Origin: Chloroflexota bacterium
GTDB lineage: Bacteria; Chloroflexota; UBA11872
Length of the DNA stretch: 64,000 nucleotides
Direction of reading: 5' to 3'
NCBI GenBank assembly: GCA_965263075.1
Contig: CBDHGI010000006.1
Location: forward strand, 2,790,101 to 2,854,100
Part shown: positions 2,968-64,000 of the stretch, one piece after another
How the letters are laid out: each line of letters opens with the position of its first letter
Numbering within the stretch: the stretch's first letter is position 1
Translations under genes and position numbers: made by a program
The notes under the pieces: generated by a model
Seen by the model: the letters and a program-made list of their open reading frames with translations, nothing else
What the model was told of the DNA's origin: nothing
Database searches by the model: none

Positions 2968-3100
2968 GAGGAAGGCGCGGCGGCCAGCAGGCCGAGATCG
3001 CGGGCGAGCGTAGCATCGGCGTTGACACGGCAAAGACCGACCGTAAACTTAAAACGCGACCCACGCGGCGAGCCAGCGAATCCCCACACACGCCGTAGTC

Positions 3101-5904: not shown

Positions 5905-5940
5905 CAGGCAACTACTCGCCCGCTGGCGACCGACTTCAGG

Positions 5941-6768: not shown

Positions 6769-6892
6769 GGCGTGGTCCTTTCGACCGCGAATCACCCGGC
6801 TCCGACGTCCTGACGCTGATTGCCCTGCCAACGGTTGTCAAACGTCTGTTCCGTCCCTGGCGGAGGCGGACACGTGCATTGCCTGGGGACGG

Positions 6893-7447: not shown

Positions 7448-7504
7448 TGGCTTCCGCGGCCGGGCAGCCGAGGGGAATGGTTCATGTGACACATCGGCGC
7501 GGCG

Positions 7505-8977: not shown

Positions 8978-8989
8978 GGCACTCGAATC

Positions 8990-42531: not shown

Positions 42532-45117
42532 CTAGCCGGGGGCGCCGGCCGGGCTAGGGGTGGTCTCGACGATGGTCGGCTTGCCGTCCTGCAGGCGAAG
42601 TTCGAACTCGCGGCCCTCGGCTGCCTCCTGCATGACGTGGTCAGTGAGCGGCTGATCGACGTATTCGCCCACCAGTTGCGCGATCGGGCGAGCGCCGGCG
42701 TGCCGACCGAGGGTAACGGTGACGATGTAGTCGAGCGCGTCGGAGGTGATGTGGAGGCGGATGCCCAGATTCTCGGCGCGTAGGGTGGCGTCGGACAGCG
42801 CGCGTCTCGCGATCTCCCGGATTTCCTCCTCGGCCAGCGCGCGGAAGACGACCAGGCGGTCGATGCGGTTCAGGAATTCGCCGGGTAATTGCTTGCGGGC
42901 GTACTCGCGGATGCGGGCTTCGTAAGCAGTATGGCGCCGGGCCGACTCCGAGGTCGGTTCGAAACCGATGGAGGGTCCGGTGACCTGGTCGACGCCCAGG
43001 TTCGAGGTCAGCACGACGATGGTGTTGCGGAAGTCGACGTGGCGGCCGTTGGCGTCCGTGAGCAGGCCGTCTTCCATGATCTGCAGCAGAACATGCAACG
43101 TTCGGGGGTGGGCTTTCTCCACGTCGTCGAAGAGGACGACGGAGTAGGGGTTGCGGCGAACGGCCTCGGTGAGCCCGCCGGCTTCGTCGAACCCGACGTA
43201 GCCCGGCGGGGAGCCGATCAGCCGCGAGATGCTGTGGTACTCCGACATCTCCGACATGTCGACCCGCACCAGGTTTTCGTCGGTGCCGCTCACGAATTGG
43301 GCCAGGGCCTTGGCGGTTTCGGTTTTGCCGACGCCTGATTCGCCCAGGAAAAGGAACGATCCGATGGGGCGGCGTGAATCGCGCATGCCGGCGAGGGCGC
43401 GGCGTAGGGCGCGACCAAGTTCGGTTAGGACGTCGTCCTGGCCGACGACGCGTTTCCGCAGGTCGTCTTCCATGTGCAGGAAGCGGTCGGAGTCGTTCGC
43501 GGCCAGCGTGGGTAGCGGCACGCCGATCCAGGCGGACAGGACCTCGGCGATCTCGTGGGGTGTGATGACCGGACGATCTGTTCCGACTTCGGCCTGCCAG
43601 GCGTCGCGCTCGTTGCGAAGTTCGTCGCGGAGTTCATCGGCGACTTGCGCGCGCACCGGGCGTGGGGCTGCGGTGGGGTTCGGGGACGCAGCGGGGATCT
43701 GGGGTTCGGCCGTCACGCGTTCGGCGGGCGGTTGGGCGTCGGCCGTCGTCGGCTCGTCGGGCGCTTCGGGCGCGGCCTCGATTTGGGCGTCCAAGGATTT
43801 GATCCGGCGCTGAAGCTCGATGATGCGGGCCGGCGGCGTCTCGCGCCGCACCTTGGCCCGAGCGGAGGCTTCATCCATCAGGTCGATGGCTTTGTCGGGG
43901 AGCTGGCGGGAGGTCACGTAGCGGCGCGACAGATTCACAGTGGCGTCCACGGCGTCGTCGGTGACCTCGACCGCGTGATAGGACTCGTAGACAGGGCGCA
44001 GGGCTTTCAGGATTTCGATGGCGTCGTCGTCGCTCGGTTCATCCACGTCGATGGGTTGGAAGCGGCGGTTGAGGCTCTTGTCGTTGGCGATGTAGCGGCG
44101 GTATTCGCGCCAGGTGGTGGCGCCGATGACCTGCACTTCGCCGCGGGCCAGGTGGCCCTTGAGCAGGTTGGCGGCGTCCAACGACCCGGCCGCGCCGCCA
44201 GCGCCGATCACGGTGTGCAGTTCGTCGATGAAGAGAATGACGTCGCCGCTCTTGCGGACCTCGGCGATGAGTTGCTGGACGCGTTCCTCGAACTCGCCGC
44301 GGTACTTCGCGCCGGCGATCATGCCGGGGAGGCTGAGGGAGATTAGGCGCTTGTTCACGAGTTCGTCAGGAACGTCGCCCTTGACGATACGGTGCGCGAG
44401 GCCCTCGGCGATGGCCGTCTTGCCGACACCCGCGTCGCCTACCAGCACCGGGTTGTTCTTGGAGCGGCGCAGCAGGACTTCTATGGCGCGGTCCATCTCA
44501 ACCTGGCGGCCGATGACGGGGTCCAGGTCGCCGGTGCGGGCGGCGTTGGTGAAGTCGCTGCCGTATTCGGCCAGCATGCTGCGGGGCTTGCTGCGACGTC
44601 CGCGCCCTCGCCAACGTCCGCGGCGGCGGCGGCCGCGGCCCGGCGATCCGGGTTGGTAGGCGGCTTCGACGCGACGACGGAGCGGTCGGAACTCGATTCC
44701 GGCCGCGGCCAGCGCTCCCGAGGTCAGACGACCGGCGTTGGCCAGCGCGCCGAGCAACAGGTGCTCGGTGCCGATGAAGCGGACGCCCATGCGTTCGGCT
44801 TCCAGGGCGGCGGAGCGCAGCACGTTGCGGCCCTGCGCGGAGAGTGGGCGCCGGCCCTCGTCCCGCGCGTAGCCCGGGGGCAGGGTGTCGACGACGGTCT
44901 CGCGCAGCGGCTCCAACTCGATGCCGGCATCGCGCAGAACACGCGCAGCGGCGGTCTGCGGCGACTCCAGGATGGCCAGGAGGACGTGGCCGGGACCGAC
45001 GGCGTCGTGCCCGAGCCGAGCGGCTTGAAGCTCGGCGTGCTGGAGCACGCGACGGCCGCGGCCGGTGAGGCGGCGGATGTACTCGACTGGGGCGTATTCG
45101 TCGGGTTCGCGTTCCAC
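42532..45117 (-). CDS. clpC: AAA+ chaperone, Clp ATPase ClpC-like (two Clp_N repeats, two AAA modules)
   Basis: 861 aa. Walker A sites GDAGVGKT and GESGVGKT. Short middle domain (ClpC/ClpA-like rather than the long ClpB coiled coil). Confidence 0.88.
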   Translation of the reverse strand: MEREPDEYAPVEYIRRLTGRGRRVLQHAELQAARLGHDAVGPGHVLLAILESPQTAAARVLRDAGIELEPLRETVVDTLPPGYARDEGRRPLSAQGRNVLRSAALEAERMGVRFIGTEHLLLGALANAGRLTSGALAAAGIEFRPLRRRVEAAYQPGSPGRGRRRRGRWRGRGRRSKPRSMLAEYGSDFTNAARTGDLDPVIGRQVEMDRAIEVLLRRSKNNPVLVGDAGVGKTAIAEGLAHRIVKGDVPDELVNKRLISLSLPGMIAGAKYRGEFEERVQQLIAEVRKSGDVILFIDELHTVIGAGGAAGSLDAANLLKGHLARGEVQVIGATTWREYRRYIANDKSLNRRFQPIDVDEPSDDDAIEILKALRPVYESYHAVEVTDDAVDATVNLSRRYVTSRQLPDKAIDLMDEASARAKVRRETPPARIIELQRRIKSLDAQIEAAPEAPDEPTTADAQPPAERVTAEPQIPAASPNPTAAPRPVRAQVADELRDELRNERDAWQAEVGTDRPVITPHEIAEVLSAWIGVPLPTLAANDSDRFLHMEDDLRKRVVGQDDVLTELGRALRRALAGMRDSRRPIGSFLFLGESGVGKTETAKALAQFVSGTDENLVRVDMSEMSEYHSISRLIGSPPGYVGFDEAGGLTEAVRRNPYSVVLFDDVEKAHPRTLHVLLQIMEDGLLTDANGRHVDFRNTIVVLTSNLGVDQVTGPSIGFEPTSESARRHTAYEARIREYARKQLPGEFLNRIDRLVVFRALAEEEIREIARRALSDATLRAENLGIRLHITSDALDYIVTVTLGRHAGARPIAQLVGEYVDQPLTDHVMQEAAEGREFELRLQDGKPTIVETTPSPAGAPG

Positions 45118-45133
45118 GGCGCTTAACGGCTCC

Positions 45134-45331
45134 TCAGAGGCCGATGGGAAGCTGGTCGACGAGGCTTTGCAAGCCCTCGCCGATGCTGTTGCCCAGAGAC
45201 GTGAACACCACGATCAGGACGATCACGAAGACGGCGGTGACGAGCAGATAGCTGAACACGCTCGACCCCTGGGGCAGATAGCGGCCGGAGGCCGGCCCGC
45301 GACCCGAATGGCGGGGCGCCCCGGTGGGGTT
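45134..45331 (-). CDS. Possible small membrane protein (single transmembrane segment)
   Basis: GTG-initiated ORF of about 66 codons (VTANLNPTG...SYLLVTAVFVIVLIVVFTSLGNSIGEGLQSLVDQLPIGL) immediately upstream of clpC. It has a hydrophobic core but no homology that I recognise. Confidence 0.2.
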   Translation of the reverse strand, partial: NPTGAPRHSGRGPASGRYLPQGSSVFSYLLVTAVFVIVLIVVFTSLGNSIGEGLQSLVDQLPIGL

Positions 45332-45463
45332 GAGATTGGCCGTCACTCCGGCTCCGAGGGCTTGTCGATCCCTGCAAGTGTAGACGGGCGGGGCGGTGGG
45401 GTGCTTGCTGGGGCTGGCGATGGGTATAGACCGGAGCGGCGCAATCGGGGGTCTCGCGCGCAA

Positions 45464-45487
45464 TAAGAGTTTTTTCCAAAAAACTCT
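45464..45487. repeat. AT-rich perfect palindrome AAGAGTTTTTT-CC-AAAAAACTCTT in a GC-rich background
   Basis: 11-bp arms and a 2-nt centre, seen directly. Lies about 350 bp upstream of the clpC start. Confidence 0.6.
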
Positions 45488-45734
45488 TGAGGCGCGGCGG
45501 GGCGTCTTTTGGCTGAAGCGGGGACGCGCCGGGCCACGCCCGGCGACGGACGGACCGGGGTGTGGCACGGGAGGGCAGCAGGGCGCGGCGGGGCGAGGTC
45601 TTGCCAGGGCGATGTGGCGAGACCTGGGCGGGATGCCGGGCGGCTCGCACCGGCACGGCAACCGGCGGTCGCGGGAGTCGGACGAAGCTGAGGGCGGGTG
45701 CCGGGCGGCGGGAATTGGGTGGGGGTAAAGGGGG

Positions 45735-45802
45735 AGCTATCTCTCGCCAGCCCGCCCCCTCTGGGGGCGGGCTGGCGAGAGATAGCTTGGGCCGAATTTT
45801 TT
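45735..45802 (+). repeat. Perfect 25-bp-stem hairpin (loop TCT) followed 9 nt downstream by T6
   Basis: Left arm AGCTATCTCTCGCCAGCCCGCCCCC (45735..45759). Right arm is its exact reverse complement (45763..45787). TTTTTT at 45797..45802. Terminator-like or a REP-type structural element. Confidence 0.55.
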
Positions 45803-46135
45803 GGCGGGTTGGCGAGGAAGGTTGGGGCTGTGAGGGGACGGCAGGACGGCGCGAGGGACGCTGGGTGCGCGGACGTGGCGAGGGGTTGGGGTGGGGGCGT
45901 CTCGAGCGGAAGAGACTGGTCTGAGACCGGCCGAGACGCAAGGTGAGGAACAGGCGGGGGCGCTCGGTTGCGAAGGTGGCGAGCAGTCGGAGGAGGCGGG
46001 TGAGCATGGAGGGTCCGGGGGAGGGCGTGAGATACGGCCTCTCTAGTGTATACTAAATGAATACGACAGGCAAGGCTGACGGGGGTAGTGGGGGCAATTC
46101 GGAGCGATAGTGGGCTCGGGATGGTGGGGAGGTCG

Positions 46136-46296
46136 GGGCGTGGTTCGACAGGCTCACCAGGGACGCTGGGTGCGCTGGGATTGTTGGGTGCCGCTGGGCC
46201 CCCTCCTTCGGCAGGCTCAGGGCAGGTTCTCCGGGGACGCCGGGATGTGGTTCGACTCGGCCCTCCGAAGACTGCGGGCCGGCTCACCATGAACGG
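46136..46296. repeat. REP-like modular GC-rich repeat, copy A
   Basis: Contains modules CCTTCGGCAGGCTCAGGGCAGG, TTCTCCGGGGACGCCGGGATG, TGGTTCGACTCGGCC and GGCTCACCATGAACGG. The same modules recur in copies B, C and D. Confidence 0.6.
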
Positions 46297-46346
46297 TAGG
46301 GGACGGGGCACGGAGGTCGGGAGGCGGGGGTTGGGCGCGGCTTGGG

Positions 46347-46494
46347 ATGTGTTCAGTCGGTCGGGGCAATGTGTTCAGTTTCGGGGCCAATGTGTCCAGT
46401 TTTCGGGCCAATGTGTCCAGTTCTTGGCCGAATGTGTTCAGTTTCAAGGGGGATGTGTTCACTTTGGCGGGCGATGTGTCCAGTTTTTGGCGGG
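46347..46494. repeat. Tandem array of seven 21-22-bp direct repeats (core ATGTGT(T/C)CAGTT), iteron-like
   Basis: Core motif starts at 46347, 46369, 46390, 46411, 46432, 46453 and 46474, i.e. a 21-bp period (two helical turns). Noncoding context. Confidence 0.75.
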
Positions 46495-46535
46495 GCGCTC
46501 TGGTTGGGGATGGGGCGCGGACGGAAGGCGAGATT

Positions 46536-46606
46536 CCTCCTTCGGCAAGCTCAGGACAGGCCTCGACGGGCTCAGGGCAGGTTCTCCGAGGACGCCGGGA
46601 TGACGG
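46536..46606. repeat. REP-like modular repeat, copy B
   Basis: CCTCCTTCGGCAAGCTCAGGACAGG...GGGCAGGTTCTCCGAGGACGCCGGGATGACGGG. Confidence 0.6.
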
Positions 46607-46729
46607 GGGAGGTGGCACGTGATTGGTGGGTGGTGGGGAGTGGCTGGTGACGGGGGCGGGGGTTGGGCTGGGTGGGATCGGAGGGCGAATTGAGGCTGGG
46701 GATGGCGGGGGCTGGCAATGACGTCGATG

Positions 46730-46760
46730 CCTGCAACGCAATCAGTAAATGCGTTGCAGG
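46730..46760. promoter_or_regulatory. 11-bp inverted repeat CCTGCAACGCA-N9-TGCGTTGCAGG upstream of hsdM; candidate operator or structural site
   Basis: Perfect arms with an AT-rich 9-nt spacer (ATCAGTAAA). A flanking imperfect direct repeat GATGC(C/A)(T/G)GCAACGC. About 165 bp upstream of the hsdM ATG. Confidence 0.4.
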
Positions 46761-46923
46761 CGATGCAGGCAACGCTGGCAAGGATGGCGAGCTCGGGACG
46801 CTTGCGTGAACGGTGCGGCTGGCAGGGGTTGGGCGCGGGGAGTGGGTCGGTTTGACCTGGGTGCGGTAGCTTGCGGGCCGGACATAGGTGGCGAGATACA
46901 CGCACAGCAGCGGTGAGGGGCGG

Positions 46924-49017
46924 ATGAACGCGGGGACGCATGGGGAGTTGGCGGGCTTTGTCTGGAGCATTTGCAACCTGTTGCGGGGGCCGTATAAGCG
47001 GAACGAGTACCGGAAGGTGATTCTTCCGCTGACGGTGTTGCGGCGATTCGACTGCGTGCTGGCGGAGACCAAGGACGCGGTCCTGGCGGAGAACGAGAAG
47101 TACGGCGGCGAGGCCAGTTCCCAACTGCTGCAGGCCGCTTCAGGATTCCGCTTCTACAACGTCTCGGAGTTGGACTTCGAGCGGCTGCTGGACGACCCGA
47201 ACCTGATTGCGTCGAACCTGACCGGTTACATCAACCGATTCTCGGCCAACGTGCGCGAGATCTTCGAGCGATTCGGTTTCGAGGCACAGATCGCGAAGAT
47301 GGACGAGAAAAACCTGCTGTTCCAGGTCGTGCAGGCGTTTGCGCGGGTCGACCTGTCGCCCGAGCGTGTCGACAACATGCAGATGGGCTACGTGTTCGAG
47401 GAATTGATCCGGATAGGGGCAGAGCAGGCGAACGAAGAGGCGGGGGAGCACTTCACGCCGCGTGAGGTCATTCGGCTGATGGTGAGCTTGCTGCTGTCGC
47501 ATGAACCCGACCTAGCCAAGTCACACGTGGTGAAAACGATTTACGACCCGGCGTGTGGTACGGGCGGGATGTTGTCGGTTTCCGAGGACTTTCTGAGGGA
47601 GCACAACAGCACCGCGAATCCGTTTCTCTTCGGGCAGGACCACAATGACGAGGTCTGGGCGGTCTGCGCCTCGGACATGCTGATCAAGGGCGAAAACGCC
47701 GAGAACATCGTCCTGGGCGACAGCTTCACGGCCGACGGGTATGCGCGCCGGTCCGACGGTCGGCGCTACACGTTCGACTACATGCTTGCGAATCCACCGT
47801 TTGGCGTTGAGTGGAAGCAACAGCGGCGTGAGATCGAACTGGAACGGGATTCACTGGGCTTCGACGGGCGATTCGGGGCGGGGCTGCCGCGGATCAATGA
47901 CGGGGCGTTGCTGTTCCTGCAGCACATGCTCTCGAAGATGCAGGCGCCTGAAGACGGCGGCAGCCGGATTGCGATCGTCTTCAACGGGTCTCCGTTGTTC
48001 ACGGGCGACGCGGGGAGCGGGGAGAGCGAAATCCGGCGGTGGATCATCGAGAACGACTGGCTGGAAGCCATCGTGGCGCTGCCGGATCAACTCTTCTACA
48101 ACACCGGGATCTCGACCTACATCTGGGTGCTAACCAACCGAAAGGAAGATCGCCGGCTGCGAAAGGTGCAACTGATCGACGGGCGGCAGTTTTTCGTGAA
48201 GATGCGCAGGAGCCTGGGCAACAAGCGCAACGAACTTTCCGCAGGCCAGATCGACGACCTGACGCGGATTCACGGCGATTTCCTGGACGGCGAGACGCGG
48301 GAACTGACGGATGAAGATCCAGTGACACATCAGCTGCGGACAAGGCCGCGCGTGGTGAGCAAGGTGTTTGCGAACGACGACTTTGGCTATCACAAGATCA
48401 CGGTCGAACGTCCGTTGCGGTTGAACTTCGCGGCGACGCCGGAGCGGATTGCGGGCATCGAGGATGAGCGGTCGTTTCAGAATCTGGCGCGGAGCCCGAA
48501 GCGAGCCGGTCCGGCGCACGATGAGGAAGTAGCTGAGGGTTGCAAGCGGCAAGAAGCGATTCGGATCCTGCTGACCTTTCTAGGAAAAGCAACCGGCGGC
48601 AAGGTGATACGAGACCGCGAAGAGCTGCGGATGGCTCTACGCGAATTGTGCAGCCATGCGGGCTTGCGGCTGTCGGCCGGGGAGCGAAAGGCAATCGAGT
48701 CGGCGCTGAGCGAGCGGGATCCGGACGCTGCCATCTGTCGCGGCAGCCGGGGCAAGATCGAGCCGGACACCGAGTTGCGCGACACAGAGACGGTGCCGCT
48801 GGGTGAGGACATCGACAACTACATGGCGCGGGAGGTGCTGCCGCACGTTCCGGACGCCTGGGTAGACGAGAGCAAGACGAAGGTCGGCTACGAGATACCG
48901 CTAAACCGGCACTTCTACGTCTACGAGCCGCCGCGCGCGCTCGACGAGATCAGGTGCGACTTGCAGCAGCTGGAACGGGGGATCGCGGGCCTGATCTCCG
49001 ATGTCGTGAGAAGCTGA
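46924..49017 (+). CDS. hsdM: Type I restriction-modification system, DNA methyltransferase subunit M (with about 200-aa C-terminal extension)
   Basis: Start MNAGTHGELAGFVWSICNLLRG (ATG 46924, preceded by GGTGAGGGG). HsdM N-terminal domain, AdoMet motif (DPACGTGGML) and catalytic NPPF (LANPPFG). Extra C-terminal region of about 200 aa. Confidence 0.9.
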   Translation: MNAGTHGELAGFVWSICNLLRGPYKRNEYRKVILPLTVLRRFDCVLAETKDAVLAENEKYGGEASSQLLQAASGFRFYNVSELDFERLLDDPNLIASNLTGYINRFSANVREIFERFGFEAQIAKMDEKNLLFQVVQAFARVDLSPERVDNMQMGYVFEELIRIGAEQANEEAGEHFTPREVIRLMVSLLLSHEPDLAKSHVVKTIYDPACGTGGMLSVSEDFLREHNSTANPFLFGQDHNDEVWAVCASDMLIKGENAENIVLGDSFTADGYARRSDGRRYTFDYMLANPPFGVEWKQQRREIELERDSLGFDGRFGAGLPRINDGALLFLQHMLSKMQAPEDGGSRIAIVFNGSPLFTGDAGSGESEIRRWIIENDWLEAIVALPDQLFYNTGISTYIWVLTNRKEDRRLRKVQLIDGRQFFVKMRRSLGNKRNELSAGQIDDLTRIHGDFLDGETRELTDEDPVTHQLRTRPRVVSKVFANDDFGYHKITVERPLRLNFAATPERIAGIEDERSFQNLARSPKRAGPAHDEEVAEGCKRQEAIRILLTFLGKATGGKVIRDREELRMALRELCSHAGLRLSAGERKAIESALSERDPDAAICRGSRGKIEPDTELRDTETVPLGEDIDNYMAREVLPHVPDAWVDESKTKVGYEIPLNRHFYVYEPPRALDEIRCDLQQLERGIAGLISDVVRS

Positions 49018-49066
49018 CGGCGTGACCAGGACGTACCGATCCGACGCGAATCGGGCCGCCTAATCC

Positions 49067-49267
49067 ATGCCGAAGGTGCGGGACGCGATCCGGATGGTGG
49101 AGCGCGACGGCTGGCACCATGTGACCACGCGAGGGAGCCACCGGCAGTTCCGCCACCCAGTCAAGCCGGGCAAGGTCACGATTCCGGGCAAACCGGGCGA
49201 CGACGTGGGGCCGAAGCTCTGGGCCAGTATCATGAAGCAGGCTGGCCTCGAGAGAGAACGTCGATGA
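49067..49267 (+). CDS. hicA: HicA-family toxin (mRNA interferase), type II TA
   Basis: 66 aa. ...VERDGWHHVTTRGSHRQFRHPVKPGKVTIPGKPGDDV..., the typical HicA/YcfA fold signature. Confidence 0.85.
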   Translation: MPKVRDAIRMVERDGWHHVTTRGSHRQFRHPVKPGKVTIPGKPGDDVGPKLWASIMKQAGLERERR

Positions 49268-49608
49268 AGCTCACGTACGCCGTCGTCTTCGAGCAGACGC
49301 CCAACAACTACGCGGCCTATGTGCCGGACGTCCCGGGCTGCGTCAGCACCGGCAAGAGCTGGGACGAGATGCTGGCGATGATCCGCGAGGCGCTGGCGTT
49401 CCACATCGAGACGATCCTGGAGGATGGGGAGCCGCTCCCCGAGCCGAGGATGTCTATCGACGAGGCCATCGCGAACCACAGCGAACCCATCGCCGAGGAC
49501 GTGCTCAACTCCTACCTGGAGTTCGGCGAGCCCGGCCCCACGATCTCGACCCGGTTTGAGATGGTTGAGATTGAGGTTCCCGCCCCGCAGGCTGTTCAGG
49601 TGGGCTGA
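49264..49608 (+). CDS. hicB: HicB-family antitoxin (UPF0150), type II TA
   Basis: 114 aa; overlaps the hicA stop (ATGA). MKLTYAVVFEQTPNNYAAYVPDVPGCVSTGKSWDEMLAMIREAL, the HicB N-terminal RNase-H-like fold signature. Confidence 0.8.
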   Translation: MKLTYAVVFEQTPNNYAAYVPDVPGCVSTGKSWDEMLAMIREALAFHIETILEDGEPLPEPRMSIDEAIANHSEPIAEDVLNSYLEFGEPGPTISTRFEMVEIEVPAPQAVQVG

Positions 49609-49702
49609 CGGACACTCGACGGGGAGCGTTGAGGTGGCCACGGGATCCGCCGACGCGCATCGATGTGACGCGGTCAAGACCGTGAGCGAGTCACGCACGA
49701 CC

Positions 49703-51073
49703 ATGCGCGCCTACCCTCACTACCGCGACTTCGGCGTCGAGTGGCTCGGTGAGGTGCCGGAACATTGGACCTCGGAACAGCTTGGACGCCTCGGCTCGTT
49801 CTCAAAGGGCAGCGGCGGCACGAAAGAAGACGAGGTCGAAGACGGAGTTCCCTGCGTTCGCTACGGGGACCTCTACACAGTGCACCAGTTCCACATCAAG
49901 GAGACCCGGGCAAACATCTCCGAGGACAGCGCAGCCAATTACACGGCAATCCGATACGGGGACCTCTTGTTTGCCGGGTCGGGTGAGACCCTTGAGGAAA
50001 TAGGCAAGTCAGCTTCCAATCTGGTTGGCGGCCCGGCGTATTGCGGCGGGGACGTGATCCTCTTTCGTCCGTCAATCGAGACTGAGGCCACTTTTCTTGG
50101 TTACGCCGCAGATTGCGCTCCTGCGGCTTACCAAAAGGCATGCATGGGGCGAGGCGTCACCGTCATGCACATCTACTCCAGCGAGCTCAAGTACATGGTC
50201 GTGCCGCTCCCACCCCTCGACGAGCAGCGCGCAATTGCCGCGTTTCTGGACCGGGAGACGGAGCGGATCGATGCGTTGGTGGAGAAGAAGCGGTTGTTGA
50301 TCGAGCGGTTGGAGGAGTACCGGACGGCGCTGATCACGCGCACGGTGACGCGGGGGCTGCCGCCCGAGGCGGCGCGCGCCGCCGGGCTGGACCCGTCGCC
50401 GCGGTTGAAGGCTTCGGGGGCGGAGTGGCTAGGGGTCGTTCCAGAGCATTGGGAGGTAAAGGCGCTGAAGTGGGAGACGCCTGTTCAACGTGGGGCTTCG
50501 CCGCGGCCAATTGACGACGAAGCCTATTTCGATAACGACGGCTCACACGCCTGGGTACGAATCGCCGATGTGACCGCAGCTGGTATGTATCTGAATCGCA
50601 CGACACAGCGGCTCTCTGAACTAGGAGTCTCCCTAAGCGTGCCGCTAGAGCCAGGGGAGCTTGTTTTGAGCATTGCTGGATCAGTGGGTAAGCCCTGTAT
50701 CACGAAGATCGATTGCTGCATTCACGACGGGTTCGTCTATTTCCCACAATGGACGGGGGACGTTCGGTACCTGTTCTATGTGTTTGCCTCAGGTGAGCCC
50801 TACAAGGGACTGGGGAAACTAGGCACCCAGCTGAACCTGAACACTGACACAGTCGGTTCAATCTCAGTAGCAATACCTCCAGTAGACGAGCAGGCAGCGA
50901 TTGCGGACTACTTGACCACTGAGAACGCCGAGATTGAGAGCTCGTTGGAGTCGGTCCGCGAAGCCGTCGAACGGCTACAGGAATTTCGGGCAGCCCTCAT
51001 CACCGCCGCCGTAACCGGCAAGATCGACGTGCGCGAAGCCGCGCAAGCGCCGGTCGCTGCAATGTTGGCGTAA
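49703..51073 (+). CDS. hsdS: Type I restriction-modification system specificity subunit S
   Basis: Start MRAYPHYRDFGVEWLGEVPEHW. Two target-recognition domains separated by conserved coiled-coil regions (LPPLDEQRAIAAFLDRETERID... and IPPVDEQAAIADYLTTENAEIE...). Confidence 0.9.
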   Translation: MRAYPHYRDFGVEWLGEVPEHWTSEQLGRLGSFSKGSGGTKEDEVEDGVPCVRYGDLYTVHQFHIKETRANISEDSAANYTAIRYGDLLFAGSGETLEEIGKSASNLVGGPAYCGGDVILFRPSIETEATFLGYAADCAPAAYQKACMGRGVTVMHIYSSELKYMVVPLPPLDEQRAIAAFLDRETERIDALVEKKRLLIERLEEYRTALITRTVTRGLPPEAARAAGLDPSPRLKASGAEWLGVVPEHWEVKALKWETPVQRGASPRPIDDEAYFDNDGSHAWVRIADVTAAGMYLNRTTQRLSELGVSLSVPLEPGELVLSIAGSVGKPCITKIDCCIHDGFVYFPQWTGDVRYLFYVFASGEPYKGLGKLGTQLNLNTDTVGSISVAIPPVDEQAAIADYLTTENAEIESSLESVREAVERLQEFRAALITAAVTGKIDVREAAQAPVAAMLA

Positions 51074-54000
51074 ATGACCAGCCAAACCAACGAGGCGGCC
51101 TTCGAGTCGACCGTTGAGGACATGCTGCTCGAGGGCGGCTGGAACTCAGGCAACCGGTTGGAATGGGACGCGGTGCAAGCTCTCTTTCCGGCGCGTGTCG
51201 TCGCGTTCTTGCAGGCGACGCAGCCCGAACAGTGGGCAGCGATGGCTGGATTGCACGGCGAGAAGCTGAAAGCGCGGATCGTGGACGCGCTGGCCAAGGA
51301 ACTGGTCCTGAAGGGCATGCTGGACGTGCTGCGCCACGGGTTCAAGTTCTACGGCAAGACGTTCCGGCTGGCCTATTTCAAACCGGCGCACGGGCTGAAC
51401 CCGGAGGCGCTGGCGCAGTTCGAGCGCAACGACCTGACGGTCACGCGGCAGGTTGCCTACAACCCGAACACCAACGAAACCTTGGACCTGGTGTTTGCGC
51501 TCAACGGCGTGCCGGTGGCCACGTGTGAGTTGAAGAACCCGATGACGGGTCAGTCCTGGAAGAGCGCGGTTCGGCAGTACAAGCAGGACCGTGACCCTAC
51601 CGCTCCAATCTTCAAATTCCAGAAGCGGGCGCTGGTGCACTTTGCCGCCGATCCCGACGAAGTTCACATGACGACGCGACTGGCCGGGGAGAAAACCCGA
51701 TTCCTGCCCTTCAACCGGGGGAGCCGGCCCGGCGAGATTCAATGCGGGGCGGGCAACCCGCCGCATGCTGCGGGGTACCGCACGGGTTACTTCTGGCAGG
51801 GGGTGCTGGAACGCGAGCGGTTCCTGGACATTCTCGGCTCCTACATGTTCGTGGAACGCCGCGACGAGAAGGTCGAGGACGCGAAGGGCGCACGAACGGT
51901 CAAGCGGGAGACGGTGATCTTTCCGCGCTATCACCAACTGGATTCAGTCGACCGCCTGGTGACGACCGCGGCAGCGGATGGTCCGGGACGCAACTACCTG
52001 ATTCAGCACTCAGCTGGGAGCGGCAAGACGAACAGCATCTCGTGGCTGTCGCACCGGCTGGCGAGCCTGCACGACGCCGACGAGCAGAAGATCTACCAGT
52101 GCGTGGTGGTGATCACAGACCGGCGCGTGCTTGACCGACAATTGCAAGACGCGATCTACCAGATCGAGCACGCGCAGGGCGTGGTGAAGGCGATCGATCA
52201 GGATTCCAAGCAGCTGGCGACCGCGCTGGTGGACGGGACGATGATCGTGATTACGACGCTGCAGAAGTTTCCGTTCGTGATGAAGGGTCTGCTGCGGATC
52301 GCGGGGGCCGACGAGCCGGACGCCGCGAGCGCGGCCGAGCGGGCGCAGGCCGAGTCCTGGAGCAAGGCAATTGCCGGGCGTCGATACGCAGTGATCGTGG
52401 ACGAGGCGCACTCCAGCCAGACGGGCGAGAGCGCGCGGGAAATGAAGGCGGTACTCGGGTCCAAGGCGCAGGCAGCCGAGGAGGAAGGGGACGAGGACTG
52501 GGAAGACGGGATCAATGCGGTGATCGAATCGCGCGGACCGCAGCCGAATCTCTCGTTCTTTGCGTTCACGGCGACACCCAAGGGGAAGACGTTAGAGGTG
52601 TTCGGGCGGCCGGGTCCCAGCGGCAAACCTGAGCCGTTCCACGTCTACAGCATGCGTCAGGCGATCGAGGAAGAGTTCATCCTGGACGTGCTGGGGCGGT
52701 ACACCGACTACGACACGTACTACCGGCTGGTGAAGCAGGCGGCGGAGGACCCGGAGTTTCCCAAGCGGCGGGCGGCCTCGGAGCTGGCGAAGTTCATGCA
52801 GCTGCACGAGTACAACCTGGCGCAGAAAGCCGAAGTGATCGTGGAGCACTTCCGCAACAACGTGCGGCACCAGATGGGCGGCAAGGCGAAGGCGATGGTG
52901 GTGACCTCGGGCCGGCTGCACGCGGTGCGCTACATGCAGGCCTTTCAGCGGTACATCGCCGAGAAGGAGTACGAGGACGTGCGGCCGCTGGTGGCCTTCA
53001 GCGGCACGGTGCGGGATCCGGACACGGGCGAGGAGTTCACCGAGCCGAGCATGAACTGGGACGGGGTGACGGGGAAGCCGATCAGCGAATCGGCGTTGCC
53101 GGGCCGGTTCGCCTCGCCGGACTACCAGATTCTGCTGGTGGCGGAGAAGTACCAGACCGGGTTCGACCAACCGTTGTTGCAGGCGATGTACGTGGACAAG
53201 CGGCTGGACGGGGTGCAGGCGGTACAGACGCTCTCACGGCTGAACCGTATGGCGCCGGGGAAGGAACCGCCGTTCGTGCTGGACTTCGTGAACGACCCGG
53301 AGGACATCCGCGACGCGTTCAAGCCGTACTTCGACCAGACGGAACTGCTGGACGAATCGGACCCGCACAAGCTGGAAGTGCTGAAGCACGAACTGGACCA
53401 GATGCAGGTTTACCACTGGGAAGAGGTGGAGGCGTTCGCGAGGGTGTTCTACCTGCCAGTGGCGAAGCAGCGGAAGCAGGATCACGCGCGGCTGGAAAAG
53501 GCGCTGCAGCCAGCGCGGGGCCGGTTCGGGGCGCTGGACGAGGAGGGCCAGACCGAGTTCCGCGACCGGCTAGCGGCGTTCGCGAACCTGTACGCGTTCC
53601 TGAGCCAGATCATTCCCTATGGCGACAGCGAGCATGAGCGGCTGTATTCGTTCGGGCGGGCGCTGCTGCCGTACCTGCAGGAGGACAGTGAGCGGGAACA
53701 GATTGACCTGGGGGACGACGTGGAGCTGGCGTATTACCGGCTGCAACAGGTGACTGAGGGGGCGATCAGCCTGGGCGAGGGTGAAGGCGCCTACGTGGTG
53801 AGCCCGACGGAGACCGGCACGGGCGACCCGGAGGAAGACAAGGCGCCGCTGTCGGAGATTATCGAGCGGCTGAACGAGCGGTTTGGGACGAACTTCACGG
53901 ACGCGGACCGGTTTTTCTTTGAGCAGGTGAAGGCGCAGGCGGTTCAGGACGAAACGGTGCGCGAGACGGCGCGGGCGAATCCGCTGGATAAGTTCAGCCT

Positions 54001-54172
54001 GGGGGTTCGGGATCAGATTTCTGATCTGATGATTGCGCGGATGAGTGAGAACGATTCGCTGGTGAAGCGGTACCTGGAGGAGACGGAGTTTCAAAATCTC
54101 GCGTATGAGGTGTTGGCGAAGGAGATATTTGCGGCGGTGCGGGGTGGTGAGGCGGGGGTGGCCGGCGGATAG
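51074..54172 (+). CDS. hsdR: Type I restriction-modification system endonuclease subunit R
   Basis: 1032 aa. ATG directly follows the hsdS stop. N-terminal nuclease domain, SF2 helicase motifs (QHSAGSGKT; DEAH-like VIVDEAHSSQ) and a C-terminal helical domain. Confidence 0.95.
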   Translation: MTSQTNEAAFESTVEDMLLEGGWNSGNRLEWDAVQALFPARVVAFLQATQPEQWAAMAGLHGEKLKARIVDALAKELVLKGMLDVLRHGFKFYGKTFRLAYFKPAHGLNPEALAQFERNDLTVTRQVAYNPNTNETLDLVFALNGVPVATCELKNPMTGQSWKSAVRQYKQDRDPTAPIFKFQKRALVHFAADPDEVHMTTRLAGEKTRFLPFNRGSRPGEIQCGAGNPPHAAGYRTGYFWQGVLERERFLDILGSYMFVERRDEKVEDAKGARTVKRETVIFPRYHQLDSVDRLVTTAAADGPGRNYLIQHSAGSGKTNSISWLSHRLASLHDADEQKIYQCVVVITDRRVLDRQLQDAIYQIEHAQGVVKAIDQDSKQLATALVDGTMIVITTLQKFPFVMKGLLRIAGADEPDAASAAERAQAESWSKAIAGRRYAVIVDEAHSSQTGESAREMKAVLGSKAQAAEEEGDEDWEDGINAVIESRGPQPNLSFFAFTATPKGKTLEVFGRPGPSGKPEPFHVYSMRQAIEEEFILDVLGRYTDYDTYYRLVKQAAEDPEFPKRRAASELAKFMQLHEYNLAQKAEVIVEHFRNNVRHQMGGKAKAMVVTSGRLHAVRYMQAFQRYIAEKEYEDVRPLVAFSGTVRDPDTGEEFTEPSMNWDGVTGKPISESALPGRFASPDYQILLVAEKYQTGFDQPLLQAMYVDKRLDGVQAVQTLSRLNRMAPGKEPPFVLDFVNDPEDIRDAFKPYFDQTELLDESDPHKLEVLKHELDQMQVYHWEEVEAFARVFYLPVAKQRKQDHARLEKALQPARGRFGALDEEGQTEFRDRLAAFANLYAFLSQIIPYGDSEHERLYSFGRALLPYLQEDSEREQIDLGDDVELAYYRLQQVTEGAISLGEGEGAYVVSPTETGTGDPEEDKAPLSEIIERLNERFGTNFTDADRFFFEQVKAQAVQDETVRETARANPLDKFSLGVRDQISDLMIARMSENDSLVKRYLEETEFQNLAYEVLAKEIFAAVRGGEAGVAGG

Positions 54173-54237: not shown

Positions 54238-54465
54238 CCCCCTTCGGCCGGCCCAGGGCGGGTTCTCCGAGGGACTCCGGGGCGGCTCACCACGAACGGG
54301 GGGTGGGCTGGGGATGTGGTTCGACTCGGGCCGCCGAGGGACTCTGGCCCGGCCCTTCGGCAGGCTCAGGACAGGCTCACCACGAACGGATTGGGGAAGA
54401 CGAGCGGGTCGGAGACGCCGCCTCTACGGAAGTTGGGACCGCGGACGCCGGGATGACGGTAGTGC
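54238..54465. repeat. REP-like modular repeat, copy C (two tandem units)
   Basis: CCTTCGGCCGGCCCAGGGCGGGTTCTCCGAGGGACTCCGGGGCGGCTCACCACGAACGG...GGATGTGGTTCGACTCGGGCC...CCTTCGGCAGGCTCAGGACAGGCTCACCACGAACGG...GACGCCGGGATGACGG. Confidence 0.6.
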
Positions 54466-56200
54466 GCGGTATTCGATAAGGGCTGAGCGGCCGACGACGT
54501 CGAGGATACGGATCAGCGCCTCGTGTCCGTCGGAGTCTGTCAGGCGCAGCTCTTCGCCGGGGGTGAAGTGGACGGGTTGGGGCTGGCCGTGGTTGATCGC
54601 GATGTTGGAGGCGTAGAGATAGGTTCGGTCGCTGGTGTCGCGTATGGGATTGAGGCGGCCCTTGAGGGTGGGTAGGTGTCCGACCGCCTCGGGGAAGATG
54701 ACGCTGCCGCCATCCGGGAGGGGCTGCAGGTCGAGCGTGAGCGCGCCCAGGCTGGGCGTCCAGTCTCGCTCCAGGTGCGCCGCGTGTCGGGGAGCGGCGG
54801 CGAACACGGTCATTGGGAGGTGGGAGGTGGGAGGTGTATAGCTCGACCGCTGCCTCGCCGTCGTCGTTTGTGGTCGCACGTTTCCAGGTCTTGTTCGGGA
54901 ATAGCGCTAAGACGTCGGCGCCGGGCAAGGGCTGACCGGCAGACCGAACGGCAATGACGGCGCTGGCGGGGCTGCTTTCCTGGATTGCCGCAGGGATGGC
55001 GAGGCGGACTTCGGAGTCATCGATGACCTGGTATTCGGGCAGCTTGCCGCAGAGTTCGCGAGTTTCACGCCGGATGATGGGCACGCCGTCGCCGCGGCGT
55101 TCCATGAAGTACTGGTGGTCCTCCGACCCCTGAATTCCGCCAACCGGCAGGCGCGCCAATACGGAGGTCAACGCTTCGTTGCGTGTGACCTGGCGGGTCT
55201 CCATGCTTTCCTCGGTGAGGTTGTTGGGTAGCGAGCCGGGCGACTGAATCTCCAGACGGTCGTCGAACATCGAGAGGCGAATCTTGCTGCCGCGTATCGA
55301 GTAGTCGCGGTGCACGACGGCGTTGACGAGGGCCTCGAACAGCGCCCGGTGGCTGTACTGGGGAAGGTCAACGCGCCCCGGTTCCTTGCGGGCGGCGACC
55401 TGCATGTTGCGTAGGGCGAAGGCGACGGCCTGGGCGATCTGCCTATTCAGCGGGCCGCCGATTTCTTGCGCGTCGATCTGACCGGACGCACGGTCGTTTC
55501 CGCGATAGCGGGTGGCGGTAATCCCAGCGTTTGGCAGCCATTGCTGGGGGTCCGGCGTGCACAACAGCAGGCCGGCGACCGTGGCGCGCGGGATCCCAGC
55601 TTCGTCGCTGGCCAGGAGCGCCAGTCTGCCAAGCGCGGCCTCTGGTTCGGCGGCGCCTTCGGCGCTCAACAGAGGTCGCCAGAGGGACTCGTCCAAGGTG
55701 TTGAATCCGGTGTTTGGAATGGTCTGCTCGTCGAACGATGCGAATCGCGCCTGCCCGCGCCGCTGTGCCAAGCGCAGCCACTCGTCGCCGGTCATTCTTC
55801 GCTTTGTGCCGCCGACGCGGATGTATCGATGACCGGATCGCTCATGCGGCGAATCGCCCGCGGGAACATCGACGATTAACAACCGCTTGCCATCGGGGAG
55901 TTGCATGTGCTGGGTGCGGATGCGAACGGGCGGCTCGATGGCGTCGGAGCTGATTTCGACGACGTAATCGTCTAGCGAGCCAAGTCGCTCACGCGTCATG
56001 TCCTGCCCTTCGCCCTCATCGGTGACACCGCAGAGCAGGGTGCCGCCGTCCGCGTTGGCGAAGGCCGCGATCTCGTCGGCTATGTCGGCGCGGTCCGGGC
56101 TCCTGGGATGGTTGCCGGCGAAATCGACCTGTTTGAATTCCCAGGCGCTGTCCTCGCCCAACTGAAGCCGGCGGGTGATCTCTTCGTCGCTGTAGGTCAT
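54377..56200 (-). CDS. COG2865-type protein (AlbA_2 / 'divergent AAA' N-terminal domain + HATPase_c_4-like domain + beta-sandwich domain); C-terminal about 150 codons probably out of frame
   Basis: Start MTYSDEEITRRL (ATG 56200). AlbA_2-like N-terminus (WEFK...DEIAAFANADGGTLLCGV). HATPase_c_4-like region (ALFEALVNAVVHRDYS...IRLSMFDDRLEIQSPG). CarbopepD_reg-like segment (VIAVRSAGQPLPGADVLA...TTNDDGEAAVELY). After the SHLPPP site encoded by (TGGGAGG)x3 the frame continues as an Arg/Pro-rich low-complexity tail, while a protein-like 130-aa frame (MTVFAAAPRH...LIRILDVVGRSALIEY) continues in another frame. Confidence 0.6.
   Translation of the reverse strand: MTYSDEEITRRLQLGEDSAWEFKQVDFAGNHPRSPDRADIADEIAAFANADGGTLLCGVTDEGEGQDMTRERLGSLDDYVVEISSDAIEPPVRIRTQHMQLPDGKRLLIVDVPAGDSPHERSGHRYIRVGGTKRRMTGDEWLRLAQRRGQARFASFDEQTIPNTGFNTLDESLWRPLLSAEGAAEPEAALGRLALLASDEAGIPRATVAGLLLCTPDPQQWLPNAGITATRYRGNDRASGQIDAQEIGGPLNRQIAQAVAFALRNMQVAARKEPGRVDLPQYSHRALFEALVNAVVHRDYSIRGSKIRLSMFDDRLEIQSPGSLPNNLTEESMETRQVTRNEALTSVLARLPVGGIQGSEDHQYFMERRGDGVPIIRRETRELCGKLPEYQVIDDSEVRLAIPAAIQESSPASAVIAVRSAGQPLPGADVLALFPNKTWKRATTNDDGEAAVELYTSHLPPPNDRVRRRSPTRGAPGARLDAQPGRAHARPAAPPGWRQRHLPRGGRTPTHPQGPPQSHTRHQRPNLSLRLQHRDQPRPAPTRPLHPRRRAAPDRLRRTRGADPYPRRRRPLSPYRIPRTTVIPASAVPTSVEAASPTRSSSPIRSW
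54814..54834. repeat. Heptanucleotide tandem repeat (TGGGAGG)x3 inside a coding region at a frame junction
   Basis: Seen directly: TGGGAGGTGGGAGGTGGGAGG. Loss of one unit would fuse the upstream ORF in frame to the downstream 54424..54816 frame. Confidence 0.7.
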
Positions 56201-62779: not shown

Positions 62780-64000
62780 ATGCGAGGACCACGACGATCA
62801 CTGATGTTGGCGATTCCCTTGGCAGCGCTGTTGGTTGCGTCCTGCGGGGAGAGCTCGTCGGCTGAAGCGGCTCCGGCGGCGGCTGCGGTCGAGAGAATTG
62901 TGATTAAGGAGGTGCCGGTCGAGAAGGTCGTCATGAAGGAGGTTCCGGTCGAAAGGGTGGTAGTGAAGGAAGTCCCGGTCGAGAGGCTTGTCACGCAGGA
63001 GGTCGAGAAGGTCGTCGAAAAGGTCGTGACCGCCAGCGCAGCATTGCAGGAGCCTGCTCCGGGGTCTACGGCGCGGAACCAGGCGACCACGGGCTCGCTG
63101 TTGGCTTCTGAGACGCAGGTGCCCGATTCCGGGCGGAAGGTTATTCGAAACGCTGCTATTGGAATCGTTGTGACCGATGTGCCGACCAGCGTGAAGGCGA
63201 TTCGCGGCATCGTGGCGTCGGTCCCGGGTGCGTTCGTGTCTCAGACCGGGATTGCAGGCAATCAGCCGTACCGGATCAGTTCGATCACTTTGCGGGTTCC
63301 CGCCGAGCGCTTTGACGAGACGATCGAGCGCATTCGCGCCCACGGTCGTGAGGTGGTGGCCGAGGACGTGACCGGACGGGACGTCACGGCTGCGTTCACG
63401 GACATCGAGTCGCGGATGCGCAACGCGCAGGCCACCGAGCGTCAGCTGCTGGAGATCATGGCTACCGCGAGAAACGTGCAGGACACGCTTGAGGTTCAGC
63501 GTGAAGTTGCCAAGGTGCGCGAGGAAATCGAGACGTTCCAAGGGCAGCTCAACTTGCTGGCTGACCAGGCGGCGCTGTCCACGATCACGGTCAACCTGCA
63601 TCCGGTGCCCGACCTTCGAGTCGAGCGCCGTGCGCCGGACCAGTACGCCATGCACGAGTCGGTCGAATTCCCGATCACCGTGATCAACGATGGGACGGTG
63701 GAACTGCGCGAAGTCGTGGTGCGCGATCAGCTCGATCCTGACGTGGTGTTCCAATACGCGACGAAGCCCGGGCAATACGAAGAGGCCACGCACAGCGTGG
63801 TCTGGACGATCGAACGGATGTCGCCCGGTCAGGCCCTTGAACTACGGACGGGCGCGCGTCTTGAAGGCGATGGCCGAACAATTCAGTTGAGCGCGAAAGC
63901 AAGCACGAAGAGCGAAGTTCGCGACGCCGATCAGGACCATGACGAGGTCGCTCTGCCGTTCTTTGTCGACCTCAGCATCAACAAGGAACGCGATCTTGAG
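62780..64000 (+). CDS. DUF4349-like lipoprotein paralog (3' end beyond the window) with N-terminal KEVPVE(K/R)VV tandem repeats
   Basis: ATG 62780; open to the window end. Lipobox LLVASC. Clear paralog of 60786..62486 (IRNAAIGIVV...ITVNLHP...LPFFVDLS). Confidence 0.7.
   Translation, partial: MRGPRRSLMLAIPLAALLVASCGESSSAEAAPAAAAVERIVIKEVPVEKVVMKEVPVERVVVKEVPVERLVTQEVEKVVEKVVTASAALQEPAPGSTARNQATTGSLLASETQVPDSGRKVIRNAAIGIVVTDVPTSVKAIRGIVASVPGAFVSQTGIAGNQPYRISSITLRVPAERFDETIERIRAHGREVVAEDVTGRDVTAAFTDIESRMRNAQATERQLLEIMATARNVQDTLEVQREVAKVREEIETFQGQLNLLADQAALSTITVNLHPVPDLRVERRAPDQYAMHESVEFPITVINDGTVELREVVVRDQLDPDVVFQYATKPGQYEEATHSVVWTIERMSPGQALELRTGARLEGDGRTIQLSAKASTKSEVRDADQDHDEVALPFFVDLSINKERDLE
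62906..63030 (+). repeat. Coding 30-nt tandem repeat (about 4 units) encoding KEVPVEKVVM / KEVPVERVVV / KEVPVERLVT / QEVEKVVEKVV
   Basis: Seen directly in nucleotides and in the translation. Lies in the linker between the lipobox and the DUF4349 core. Confidence 0.7.

Follow-up and report, generated by a model that had tools for sequence, protein, structure and literature searches.

We analysed a 64,000-nucleotide (nt) stretch of DNA (the window; G+C content (GC), 67%), with a focus on the apparent gap at approximately 45120–46923 between clpC, for which the closest named relatives in a protein search were Chloroflexota metagenome-assembled genomes, and hsdM. An earlier reading of this DNA (the original prediction) had described the gap as a gene-free region of about 1.8 kb. 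The stretch is mostly non-coding, organized, structure-rich and non-random, and the description as gene-free holds for approximately 45347–46887 (1.54 kb) but not for 45134–45346, which is occupied by a conserved small gene. Reading outward from this gene, the stretch contains a predicted proximal promoter, an AT-rich palindrome, a long perfect hairpin, a predicted distal promoter (P2), an array of 21-bp direct repeats and the junction to strain-specific cargo (Table 1); array, P2 and hairpin are together referred to as the cassette. The repeats listed in the original prediction are all present—the palindrome at 45464–45487 (extending over 45457–45496), two copies resembling repetitive extragenic palindromic (REP) sequences (46202–46247 and 46536–46602), the 21-bp array (seven units) and the inverted repeat, which had been noted as 11 bp and has arms of 12 bp. 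The excess of G over C on the plus strand (skew, 0.27–0.36) is the highest of the window.

Table 1 Features of the clpC–hsdM region and of the adjoining restriction–modification island (window coordinates).
Feature	Position	Strand	Remarks
clpC	42532–45117	minus	Clp_N and AAA domains
Small conserved gene	45134–45346	minus	70 codons from GTG 45346
Proximal clpC-operon control region (predicted)	45350–45385	minus	GGAG Shine–Dalgarno site 45355–45352; −10-like TACACT 45382–45377
AT-rich palindrome	45457–45496, core 45464–45487		AAGAGTTTTTT-NN-AAAAAACTCTT, GC-rich flanks
Cassette: array, P2, hairpin	~45575–46530	minus	read toward clpC
Hairpin segment of the cassette	45575–45833	minus	present or absent as a block; exactly absent in L218
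Conserved hairpin unit	45712–45812		G5-TRA-G5 flank, 25-bp stem 45735–45787, T-rich flank (plus strand)
Perfect hairpin, 25-bp arms	45735–45759 / 45763–45787		3-nt loop
Distal promoter P2 (predicted)	46073–46045	minus	−35 TTGCCT 46073–46068, 17 nt, −10 TACACT 46050–46045
REP-like G-rich units between promoter and array	46140–46300 (46151–46170, 46202–46247, 46281–46300)	plus	
Seven direct 21-bp repeats (iteron-like)	46347–46494	plus	core ATGTGTYCAS(T), G/C-rich variable remainder
Second REP-like cluster	46536–46602	plus	
12-bp inverted repeat	46729–46761		GCCTGCAACGCA-N9-TGCGTTGCAGGC
Junction to strain-specific cargo	46790–46887		similarity to L085, L086 and L218 stops at 46787–46790
hsdM	46888–49017	plus	first gene of the type I restriction–modification block
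Type I restriction–modification block: hsdM, hicA, hicB, hsdS, hsdR	46888 to 54172	plus	all genes on the plus strand
REP-like repeats at the far end of the island	54243–54390	plus	before the Schlafen/AlbA_2 gene
Schlafen/AlbA_2 gene	after the restriction–modification block	minus	

A scan of reference genomes yielded ClpC proteins of at best 44% identity. Close relatives were taken from a large protein collection (ClpC 85–94% identical, on long contigs), and we compared the DNA around nine of these with the window, together with one distant locus (L217; ClpC, 65%). The readable material comprised loci of 14–22 kb and the 64-kb window, and the related DNA totals 435 kb. Non-coding DNA at 45347–46790 is kept at 85–91% nucleotide identity in L085 and L086, for which the coding DNA of the same pairs is 90–95% identical, and the part at 45513–46790 is retained at 85–91% in relatives with ClpC 93–94% identical, despite different cargo genes. 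At greater distance conservation is modular; in the distant L087, only the hairpin unit, one AT-rich box (P2) and the repeat array are still recognizable. In L217 (4976–6001), moaC lies directly upstream of clpC, the gap (~500 nt) has no called small gene and a pattern scan shows no palindrome, P2, array or long hairpin, so the whole arrangement is confined to a narrow clade.

The gene that had been missed encodes a product with one predicted transmembrane helix (…VFSYLLVTAVFVIVLIVVFTSLGNSIGEGLQSLVDQLPIGL), and its TGA stop codon overlaps the GGAG Shine–Dalgarno site of clpC. A homologue of 67–79 amino acids is called in the relatives (126 amino acids in L089; none in L217), and an alignment of eight relatives (A1) has in-frame indels and a conserved hydrophobic core. 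The GC content at the three codon positions is 0.63/0.48/0.87, and Pfam and NCBIfam searches assigned no family. We regard this as a genuine gene, predicted to encode a membrane protein and coupled to clpC. Immediately upstream of it, GTCTACACTGGC…GGAGCCGG(N)GTG is kept in seven of eight sequences, with L088 reading GTCTAAACT. This proximal region survives where an IS110 insertion sequence (L088) or a toxin–antitoxin pair (L089) replaces all upstream DNA, and the small gene, its Shine–Dalgarno site and the GTCTACACT element persist in nearly all relatives, one base differing in L088; we predict a proximal clpC promoter here. The clpC gene itself has 861 codons when read from GTG 45117, the 18 nt after which are nearly invariant in eight sequences, and most relatives are annotated at 835 codons (window position 45039).

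The palindrome between this promoter and the hairpin was found in seven of the nine relatives compared, with identical arms in the window, L085, L086, L082, L087, L090 and L218 and GG or AG at the centre. It folds at −20.3 kcal/mol (z = −3.2) and is a candidate operator or, alternatively, a candidate RNA hairpin in a leader. The HspR-associated inverted repeat (HAIR), CTTGAGT-N7-ACTCAAG, likewise has GAGT…ACTC half-sites upstream of a heat-shock chaperone or protease gene. The sequence here, CAAGAGT-N12-ACTCTTA, differs from it in the spacer (12 nt, not 7) and in the outer bases of the half-sites, and lies ~75–115 nt upstream of the proximal −10 element; an assignment to HAIR was rejected.

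Beyond the hairpin, the AT-rich box resembles a sigma-70-type promoter that faces clpC, with the hairpin and the small gene in between. In the window, TTGCCH-N17-TACAMT has a single match (0 expected). Both hexamers, −35 and −10, at exactly this spacing, are also present at the corresponding position in L082, L085, L086, L087, L090 and L218, and only two stray matches were found in 220 loci. Conservation extends over the first ~40 nt downstream, which include a CCAATGC/CCATGC motif at +30 to +38; the leader beginning at P2 (400–990 nt) is C-rich, with a C/G ratio of 1.6–2.7. A promoter-like site on the plus strand (46027–46054) is not conserved in the relatives and was discarded. Because the only conserved promoter is on the minus strand, any conserved transcription probably runs toward clpC, opposite to the direction in which the original prediction had placed a transcribed RNA.

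Long open reading frames of the stretch had no Pfam or NCBIfam match. Their GC content by codon position is flat (0.73/0.67/0.72, versus 0.74/0.47/0.85 in clpC), substitutions between the window and L085 number 19/25/17 at the three positions (14/14/106 in clpC), and indels of 1–2 bases occur in the leader of this pair. The missing family match, the lack of codon periodicity, the flat substitutions and the ±1 indels rule out a protein-coding region or pseudogene, and ~1.54 kb (approximately 45347–46887) is non-coding by composition, substitution pattern and family searches. The translations had been set aside as low-complexity artefacts, which was correct for all but the small gene. We record one unexplained detail: a minus-strand frame (46007–45123 in the window) starting at a conserved ATG 30–38 nt after P2 is stop-free in all seven leaders in the clpC context (L082, L085–L087, L090, L218 and the window; 400–990 nt). 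Although indels are numerous, the frame never shifts with respect to the small gene; in five of the seven leaders it stops 5 nt short of the clpC GTG, and shuffled leaders are free of stops with a probability of 0.08–0.45 per sequence. We treat this frame as non-coding because it has no Shine–Dalgarno site and no coding signature.

The hairpin is the sole one of its kind in the window and folds at −61 to −68 kcal/mol (z = −7 to −10). Covariation was assessed in an alignment of six copies (A4), in which 99.3% of the cells are paired and 9 of the 26 pairs have changed on both sides, transversions included; none of 500 shuffles reached this alignment on any of five measures, and slid partners pair at 28–48%. 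The loop is variable (TCT/AGA/GAA/TTA). Four of the six copies share the stem centre CGCCAGCCCG, from which L085 and L087 each differ by one base, and the stem adjoins conserved flanks, G5-TRA-G5 at one end and a T-rich run at the opposite end. Read on the promoter (minus) strand, the unit consists of an A-rich segment, the stem and C5TTYAC5 (C5TTTAC5 in the window). The hairpin is under constraint. Of the wobble pairs, one favours each strand, which is compatible with either RNA or DNA as the folded form. A covariance model of the unit (R1) found only the six known copies in the 435 kb of related DNA.

Relatives keep the region and the hairpin has compensatory changes, so that the outcome named in the original prediction as refuting it was not observed. 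No RNA family was recognized: Rfam 15 gave 0 matches in the window at the gathering threshold, and a permissive search gave 12 sub-threshold matches of which all but two were generic matches to the long hairpin itself (for example P35, 37 versus 70 bits), which rules out a known family. The same prediction had joined the hairpin to a T-tract (45735–45802). The perfect 25-bp stem is confirmed, but the T6 run on the plus strand starts 9 nt after the stem, and the terminator scan made no call; no U-tract follows the stem on the minus strand, where C5TTTAC5 is found. The hairpin does not seem to be a canonical Rho-independent terminator, in which a U-tract would directly follow a GC-rich stem. In L124, the hairpin lies 66 nt past the stop codon of a convergent gene, where a terminator would be expected. 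The absence of the hairpin segment from L218 is exact in that 45100–45574 and 45834–46247 map by blastn to adjoining, slightly overlapping L218 stretches. Near both ends of the segment missing there are 11-nt direct repeats, GAYGTGGCGAG (45610–45622 and 45872–45884), which, as read from the sequence, resemble the core of the 21-bp repeat (GATGTGTCCAG).

The repeat core ATGTGTYCAGTTT matches seven times in the array (0.69 matches expected over the entire window), and Tandem Repeats Finder delimits the array to 46347–46486 (6.6 copies). Among 44 units from six loci, most core positions carry 1.8–2.0 bits and the remainder carries 0.2–1.2 bits. Copy number is 5–12 per locus, the orientation relative to P2 is identical in the six loci, and each array opens with an interval of 22 bp and continues at 21 bp. 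As 21 bp corresponds to two helical turns, all sites would lie on one helix face, and the units are most likely sites for one sequence-specific DNA-binding protein, stacked on that face. L085 has two arrays (8513–8614 and 8776–8895, ~170 nt apart; 12 units in all), which indicates duplication of the array in one close relative. Other identities were considered for these repeats. CRISPR arrays (clustered regularly interspaced short palindromic repeats) have repeats of ~25–40 nt and unique spacers of similar length; here the units are 21 nt without spacers, only ~8–10 variable bases separating the cores. A type III toxin–antitoxin (ToxI-like) system does not fit because the gene beyond the array differs with the context (hsdM, other cargo or dprA) and the array lies upstream, not downstream, of the promoter. 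DnaA boxes and the sites of CtsR, CIRCE, HAIR, LexA and LytTR, compared by eye with the core and the palindrome, serve as leads only; none fits in both sequence and spacing.

REP-like units lie on both sides of the array and again at the far end of the restriction–modification (R–M) island. The unit (TTCGGCAGGCTCAGGRCAGG … CTCACCAYGAACGG) has five matches in the window against 0.04 expected, at two intergenic sites and all on the plus strand, those beyond the island lying at 54243–54375; such repetition of short units at several intergenic sites is the trait of REP sequences and bacterial interspersed mosaic elements, and the class assignment rests on it. Related units were found in L085–L090, L124 and L218. 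The leaders of L090 and L218 contain some of them, and in the window, L087 and L124 units lie between the promoter and the array. At this place, L085 has ~63 nt against ~207 nt in the window. The copy at 46208–46247 and part of 46536–46602 form 40-nt direct repeats (93% identical) that bracket the array; L218 has a single REP-like copy matching both, and 46248–46562, with the array, is absent from it. The absence is best explained by a deletion between the direct repeats, as judged from the sequences compared.

The cassette also occurs outside the clpC context. Metagenome contigs were scanned for two adjacent repeat cores, which returned ~119 matches; 117 were unrelated low-GC tandem repeats, and only L124 and L168, both from one metagenome (LXNI01), were related. 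In both, array, promoter and flanked hairpin stand in the same order and orientation as in the window, with the P2 pattern TTGCCA-17-TACAAT in L168 and the counterpart CTGCCA-18-TACAAT in L124. The L124 cassette follows an ABC transporter gene, and the L168 cassette lies between dprA and secD. The dprA–secD gap is 59 nt in L220 (SecD 96% identical to L168) and 210 nt in L219 (SecD 78% identical), both without a cassette, showing that the 633-nt cassette of L168 is an insertion and that its presence is polymorphic at an otherwise conserved site. The insert starts at the outermost repeat and ends 65–76 nt beyond the hairpin.

On the side away from clpC, the region borders DNA that is exchanged among close relatives. 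A G-rich block (approximately 46610–46790) that includes the 12-bp inverted repeat has been kept in L085, L086 and L218; the inverted repeat folds at −23.7 kcal/mol (z = −4.3), with one compensatory change in L085 (T>A with A>T) and two mismatches in L086. Similarity to the relatives ceases at the junction and resumes at 54307–54467, beyond the R–M island. The cargo between ~46790 and the Schlafen-type gene differs in every relative, as expected of a variable hotspot (L082, L085, L086 and L090, at ~1300–9000): the window has the type I R–M system and HicAB, L082 an MmeI-type enzyme and an AAA_21/DUF4276 gene pair, L085 and L090 Eco57I-type enzymes and genes without known function, and L086 copies of IS110. 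No integrase was noticed in the hotspot in these four loci or the window. In L087–L089 and L218, other genes, IS110 or toxin–antitoxin genes lie upstream of the small gene, and the stretch fetched contains no Schlafen-type gene. IS110 transposase genes are found in this intergenic region in L086 (1604–2548 and 6877–8770), where IS110 splits the cassette between promoter and array, and in L088 (7841–8779). Two further observations concern the window at large. The HicA/HicB pair is inserted between hsdM and hsdS (49067–49608), and a 30-nt tandem repeat on the plus strand (62886–63004) is coding, giving KEVPVE(K/R)VV-type repeats in a protein that starts at ~62781 (region 62781–63100) with a lipoprotein-like signal (…LAALLVASC).

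We tentatively favour, at slightly less than an even chance, the interpretation that the stretch is an extended control region of the small-gene/clpC operon, which borders a defence-island hotspot and has taken up a non-coding cassette of low copy number that was once mobile. One protein would bind the array of 5–12 direct 21-bp sites, two helical turns apart; a spacer of ~110–125 bp, into which REP-like repeats seem to have been inserted several times, would separate the array from P2; and P2, as a sigma-70-type promoter, would transcribe the C-rich stretch containing the 25–26-bp perfect hairpin. With no U-tract behind it on that strand, the hairpin would let P2 transcripts through; they would then cross the palindrome and the proximal promoter and reach the small gene and clpC, producing a second, regulated, long-leader clpC transcript. 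In the opposite direction, the hairpin and T-run could block incoming transcription, and in L124 they are placed where the convergent ABC gene would need a terminator. In L168, the cassette between dprA and secD would supply secDF with the same regulated promoter; it lies just upstream of secDF (same strand as dprA; native gap, 59 nt), and transcription would therefore enter secD via the hairpin. It is possible, although on balance doubtful, that the cassette represents an undescribed class of non-autonomous Chloroflexota regulatory cassette, in which phased 21-bp sites for a DNA-binding protein, an outward promoter and a 26-bp hairpin move as a unit, linking genes of proteostasis and secretion (clpC and secDF) in one regulon at each landing site and, here, marking the edge of a hotspot of defence-island exchange. 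The original prediction thus described a real feature and is partly supported, with one gene missed and the direction of the RNA reversed. Its suggestion of a decayed mobile-element end was right in part and in a different form, given that the repeat–promoter–hairpin cassette is a clean insertion in another Chloroflexota genome and that the right edge of the region (~46790) borders a variable island.

Several observations weigh against the control-region interpretation. P2, the read-through and the leader are all inferred from anatomy, and mobility rests on one insertion polymorphism and three contexts, with only one copy per locus in the 435 kb. The L168 insert has no terminal inverted repeats (its ends share only a 7-nt match in local alignment), and its junctions, compared with the empty L220 site (…CTCGCAC / GTATGATCA…), show no target duplication. 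L082, L090 and L218 keep P2 without array and hairpin, L082 and L090 retaining the palindrome as well, so array and hairpin appear dispensable for clpC expression. The L124 cassette faces the 3′ end of a convergent gene and drives no gene there, as would be expected just as much of a selfish element or a stand-alone RNA. None of the copies has a gene for a candidate binding protein beside it, and symmetric changes in a perfect palindrome can arise by template switching and not by selection.

Among the alternatives, the one that survives best is that the cassette is a stand-alone non-coding RNA gene, which we consider unlikely. P2 would produce a C-rich RNA of 200–450 nt ending at the long hairpin, itself a terminator without a U-tract or a 3′ stabilizer; the array would be the upstream regulatory region and the neighbouring genes incidental. 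The conservation of the hairpin and of the first ~40 nt after P2, with the CCAATGC/CCATGC motif, would suit such an RNA, but the DNA between them is conserved neither in sequence nor in length across contexts (170–430 nt). The lack of a gene to drive in L124 is readily accommodated, whereas a terminating insert directly upstream of secD, as in L168, might deprive secDF of transcription. A further small hairpin, at 45918–45936 and with one compensatory change between the window and L085, adds structure to the presumed transcript. Nevertheless, no Rfam family matches, the long hairpin has no U-tract on the P2 strand and P2 is kept without it in L082, L090 and L218.

It is quite unlikely that all but the proximal clpC promoter region is filler in decay, left over beside a recombination hotspot, interspersed with selfish repeats, without present function and conserved only through recent common ancestry. 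Non-coding identity is a little below that of coding DNA in the same pairs (85–91% versus 90–95%), array and hairpin have each been lost cleanly in some relatives, and REP-like repeats and IS110 insert here freely, all of which a decaying region would allow. Recent ancestry does not explain why L087 and two foreign contexts keep only three modules, in fixed order and orientation, with the DNA between them diverged beyond alignment, nor the near-invariant repeat cores beside variable remainders, a hairpin that stays 99% paired through nine double changes and the invariant spacing of P2.

It is decidedly improbable that array and hairpin serve in cis as the DNA site of a trans-acting protein of replication, transfer or recombination, with the promoter secondary. 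Variants of this idea are an iteron-type origin, an oriT-like site and the ends of a non-autonomous element moved by an HUH-type or other transposase. Phased direct repeats beside a long perfect hairpin are a classic layout for binding by Rep proteins or relaxases, and the seven units at 21–22 bp agree with the ~17–22-bp phased direct repeats of iterons. Yet no rep, relaxase, integrase or transposase gene stands beside any copy, apart from unrelated IS110 insertions. An iteron-type replication origin (oriV) was rejected on this ground (the neighbours being clpC, hsdM, secD, dprA and an ABC transporter gene) and for want of plasmid or phage similarity. Plasmid (72,556), phage (50,697) and viral collections contained no similar sequence, which also excludes an integrated plasmid or phage origin; five viral matches to the hairpin-core pattern had neither array nor promoter, were apparently within coding sequence when inspected by eye and were judged to be chance palindromes. 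The chromosomal origin (oriC) or terminus was dismissed because GC skew does not change sign: almost all 1-kb bins to either side have positive values, and the cumulative skew rises almost unbroken across the window, this region included. HUH-type elements likewise insert without terminal inverted repeats or target site duplications, and a stem conserved without its loop, a repeat copy number of 5–12 and a position bordering a hotspot of exchanged defence cargo would also be in keeping with a cis-acting site; the loop, however, has no conserved nick-site-like sequence, 65–76 nt separate the hairpin from the insert's end and only one end carries the array.

Very unlikely, finally, is a translated leader, that is, a long Pro/Arg-rich reading frame from the conserved ATG to the stop 5 nt before the clpC start, which would count through the act of translation and not through its product (for instance, by keeping Rho off a C-rich leader): the seven of seven stop-free frames (against the modest probabilities in shuffles), the phase held through many indels, the C/G ratio of 1.6–2.7 and an L168 copy open through the hairpin in the same frame are outweighed by an ATG with no preceding Shine–Dalgarno site, the lack of codon-position periodicity and of any family match, flat substitutions, a −61 kcal/mol hairpin and an operator-like palindrome within the frame, a C-rich strand whose other frames are nearly stop-free too, and the end of the L168 frame in native DNA beyond the insert.

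What looked like a 1.8-kb gap becomes a testable map that contains a small gene missed before, two predicted promoters, a candidate operator and a cassette of non-coding DNA in three parts. Should the cassette be a mobile unit with a regulated promoter, regulatory DNA would here have spread on its own between unrelated operons, in a phylum that is little studied and mostly uncultured. The phased repeats offer a direct handle for finding the protein that reads them. The region is also one fixed border of a hotspot at which R–M and other defence genes are swapped among close relatives, which makes it useful for mining Chloroflexota defence systems.

Comparable layouts are known from several systems. 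Iteron plasmid origins and rolling-circle or oriT regions have helix-phased direct repeats of ~20 bp, an AT-rich patch and an adjoining long inverted repeat. The cassette shares this arrangement but lacks a rep or relaxase gene, plasmid or phage similarity and a conserved loop, and the conserved −35/−10 spacing makes a promoter the better explanation of its AT-rich patch. Among modular intergenic repeats, BOX elements of Streptococcus pneumoniae contain boxB units in tandem, in numbers that vary, and Correia elements of Neisseria supply promoters and, once transcribed, fold into hairpins cut by RNase III; both are ~100–300 bp and high-copy, with defined end modules or terminal inverted repeats. 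Their modular intergenic layout is like that of the cassette, but neither sequence similarity nor copy number gives evidence of kinship.

Closer parallels come from two further types of element. BrickBuilt, a Porphyromonas gingivalis element of the miniature inverted-repeat transposable type (MITE), has 23-nt tandem units, promoter elements and small inverted-repeat ends and is present in 19 copies per genome (PMC4596501). Like the cassette, it is intergenic, non-coding and narrow in host range, and it combines a tandem array of short units (23 nt versus 21 nt), distinct ‘leader’ and ‘tail’ parts and promoter elements able to affect neighbouring genes (PMC4596501). The cassette differs in being larger (0.63–0.95 kb), in having a covarying 25–26-bp hairpin, a single oriented promoter and one copy per locus, and in lacking terminal inverted repeats or a target duplication. 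Putative mobile promoters are defined as 50–100-nt stretches that share at least 80% identity, in most cases inside a single genome (Matus-Garcia et al. 2012, PMC3488235). As with these (PMC3488235), homologous promoter-bearing non-coding DNA is found upstream of unrelated genes (the clpC operon and secDF), suggesting that regulatory DNA has been mobilized; the cassette, in contrast, is a three-part unit shared across genomes, with sequence conservation confined to its modules. Although it does not have the ends or the target duplication of a MITE, the closest described systems are mosaic intergenic elements that combine a minisatellite with a promoter, as in BrickBuilt, and mobile promoters.

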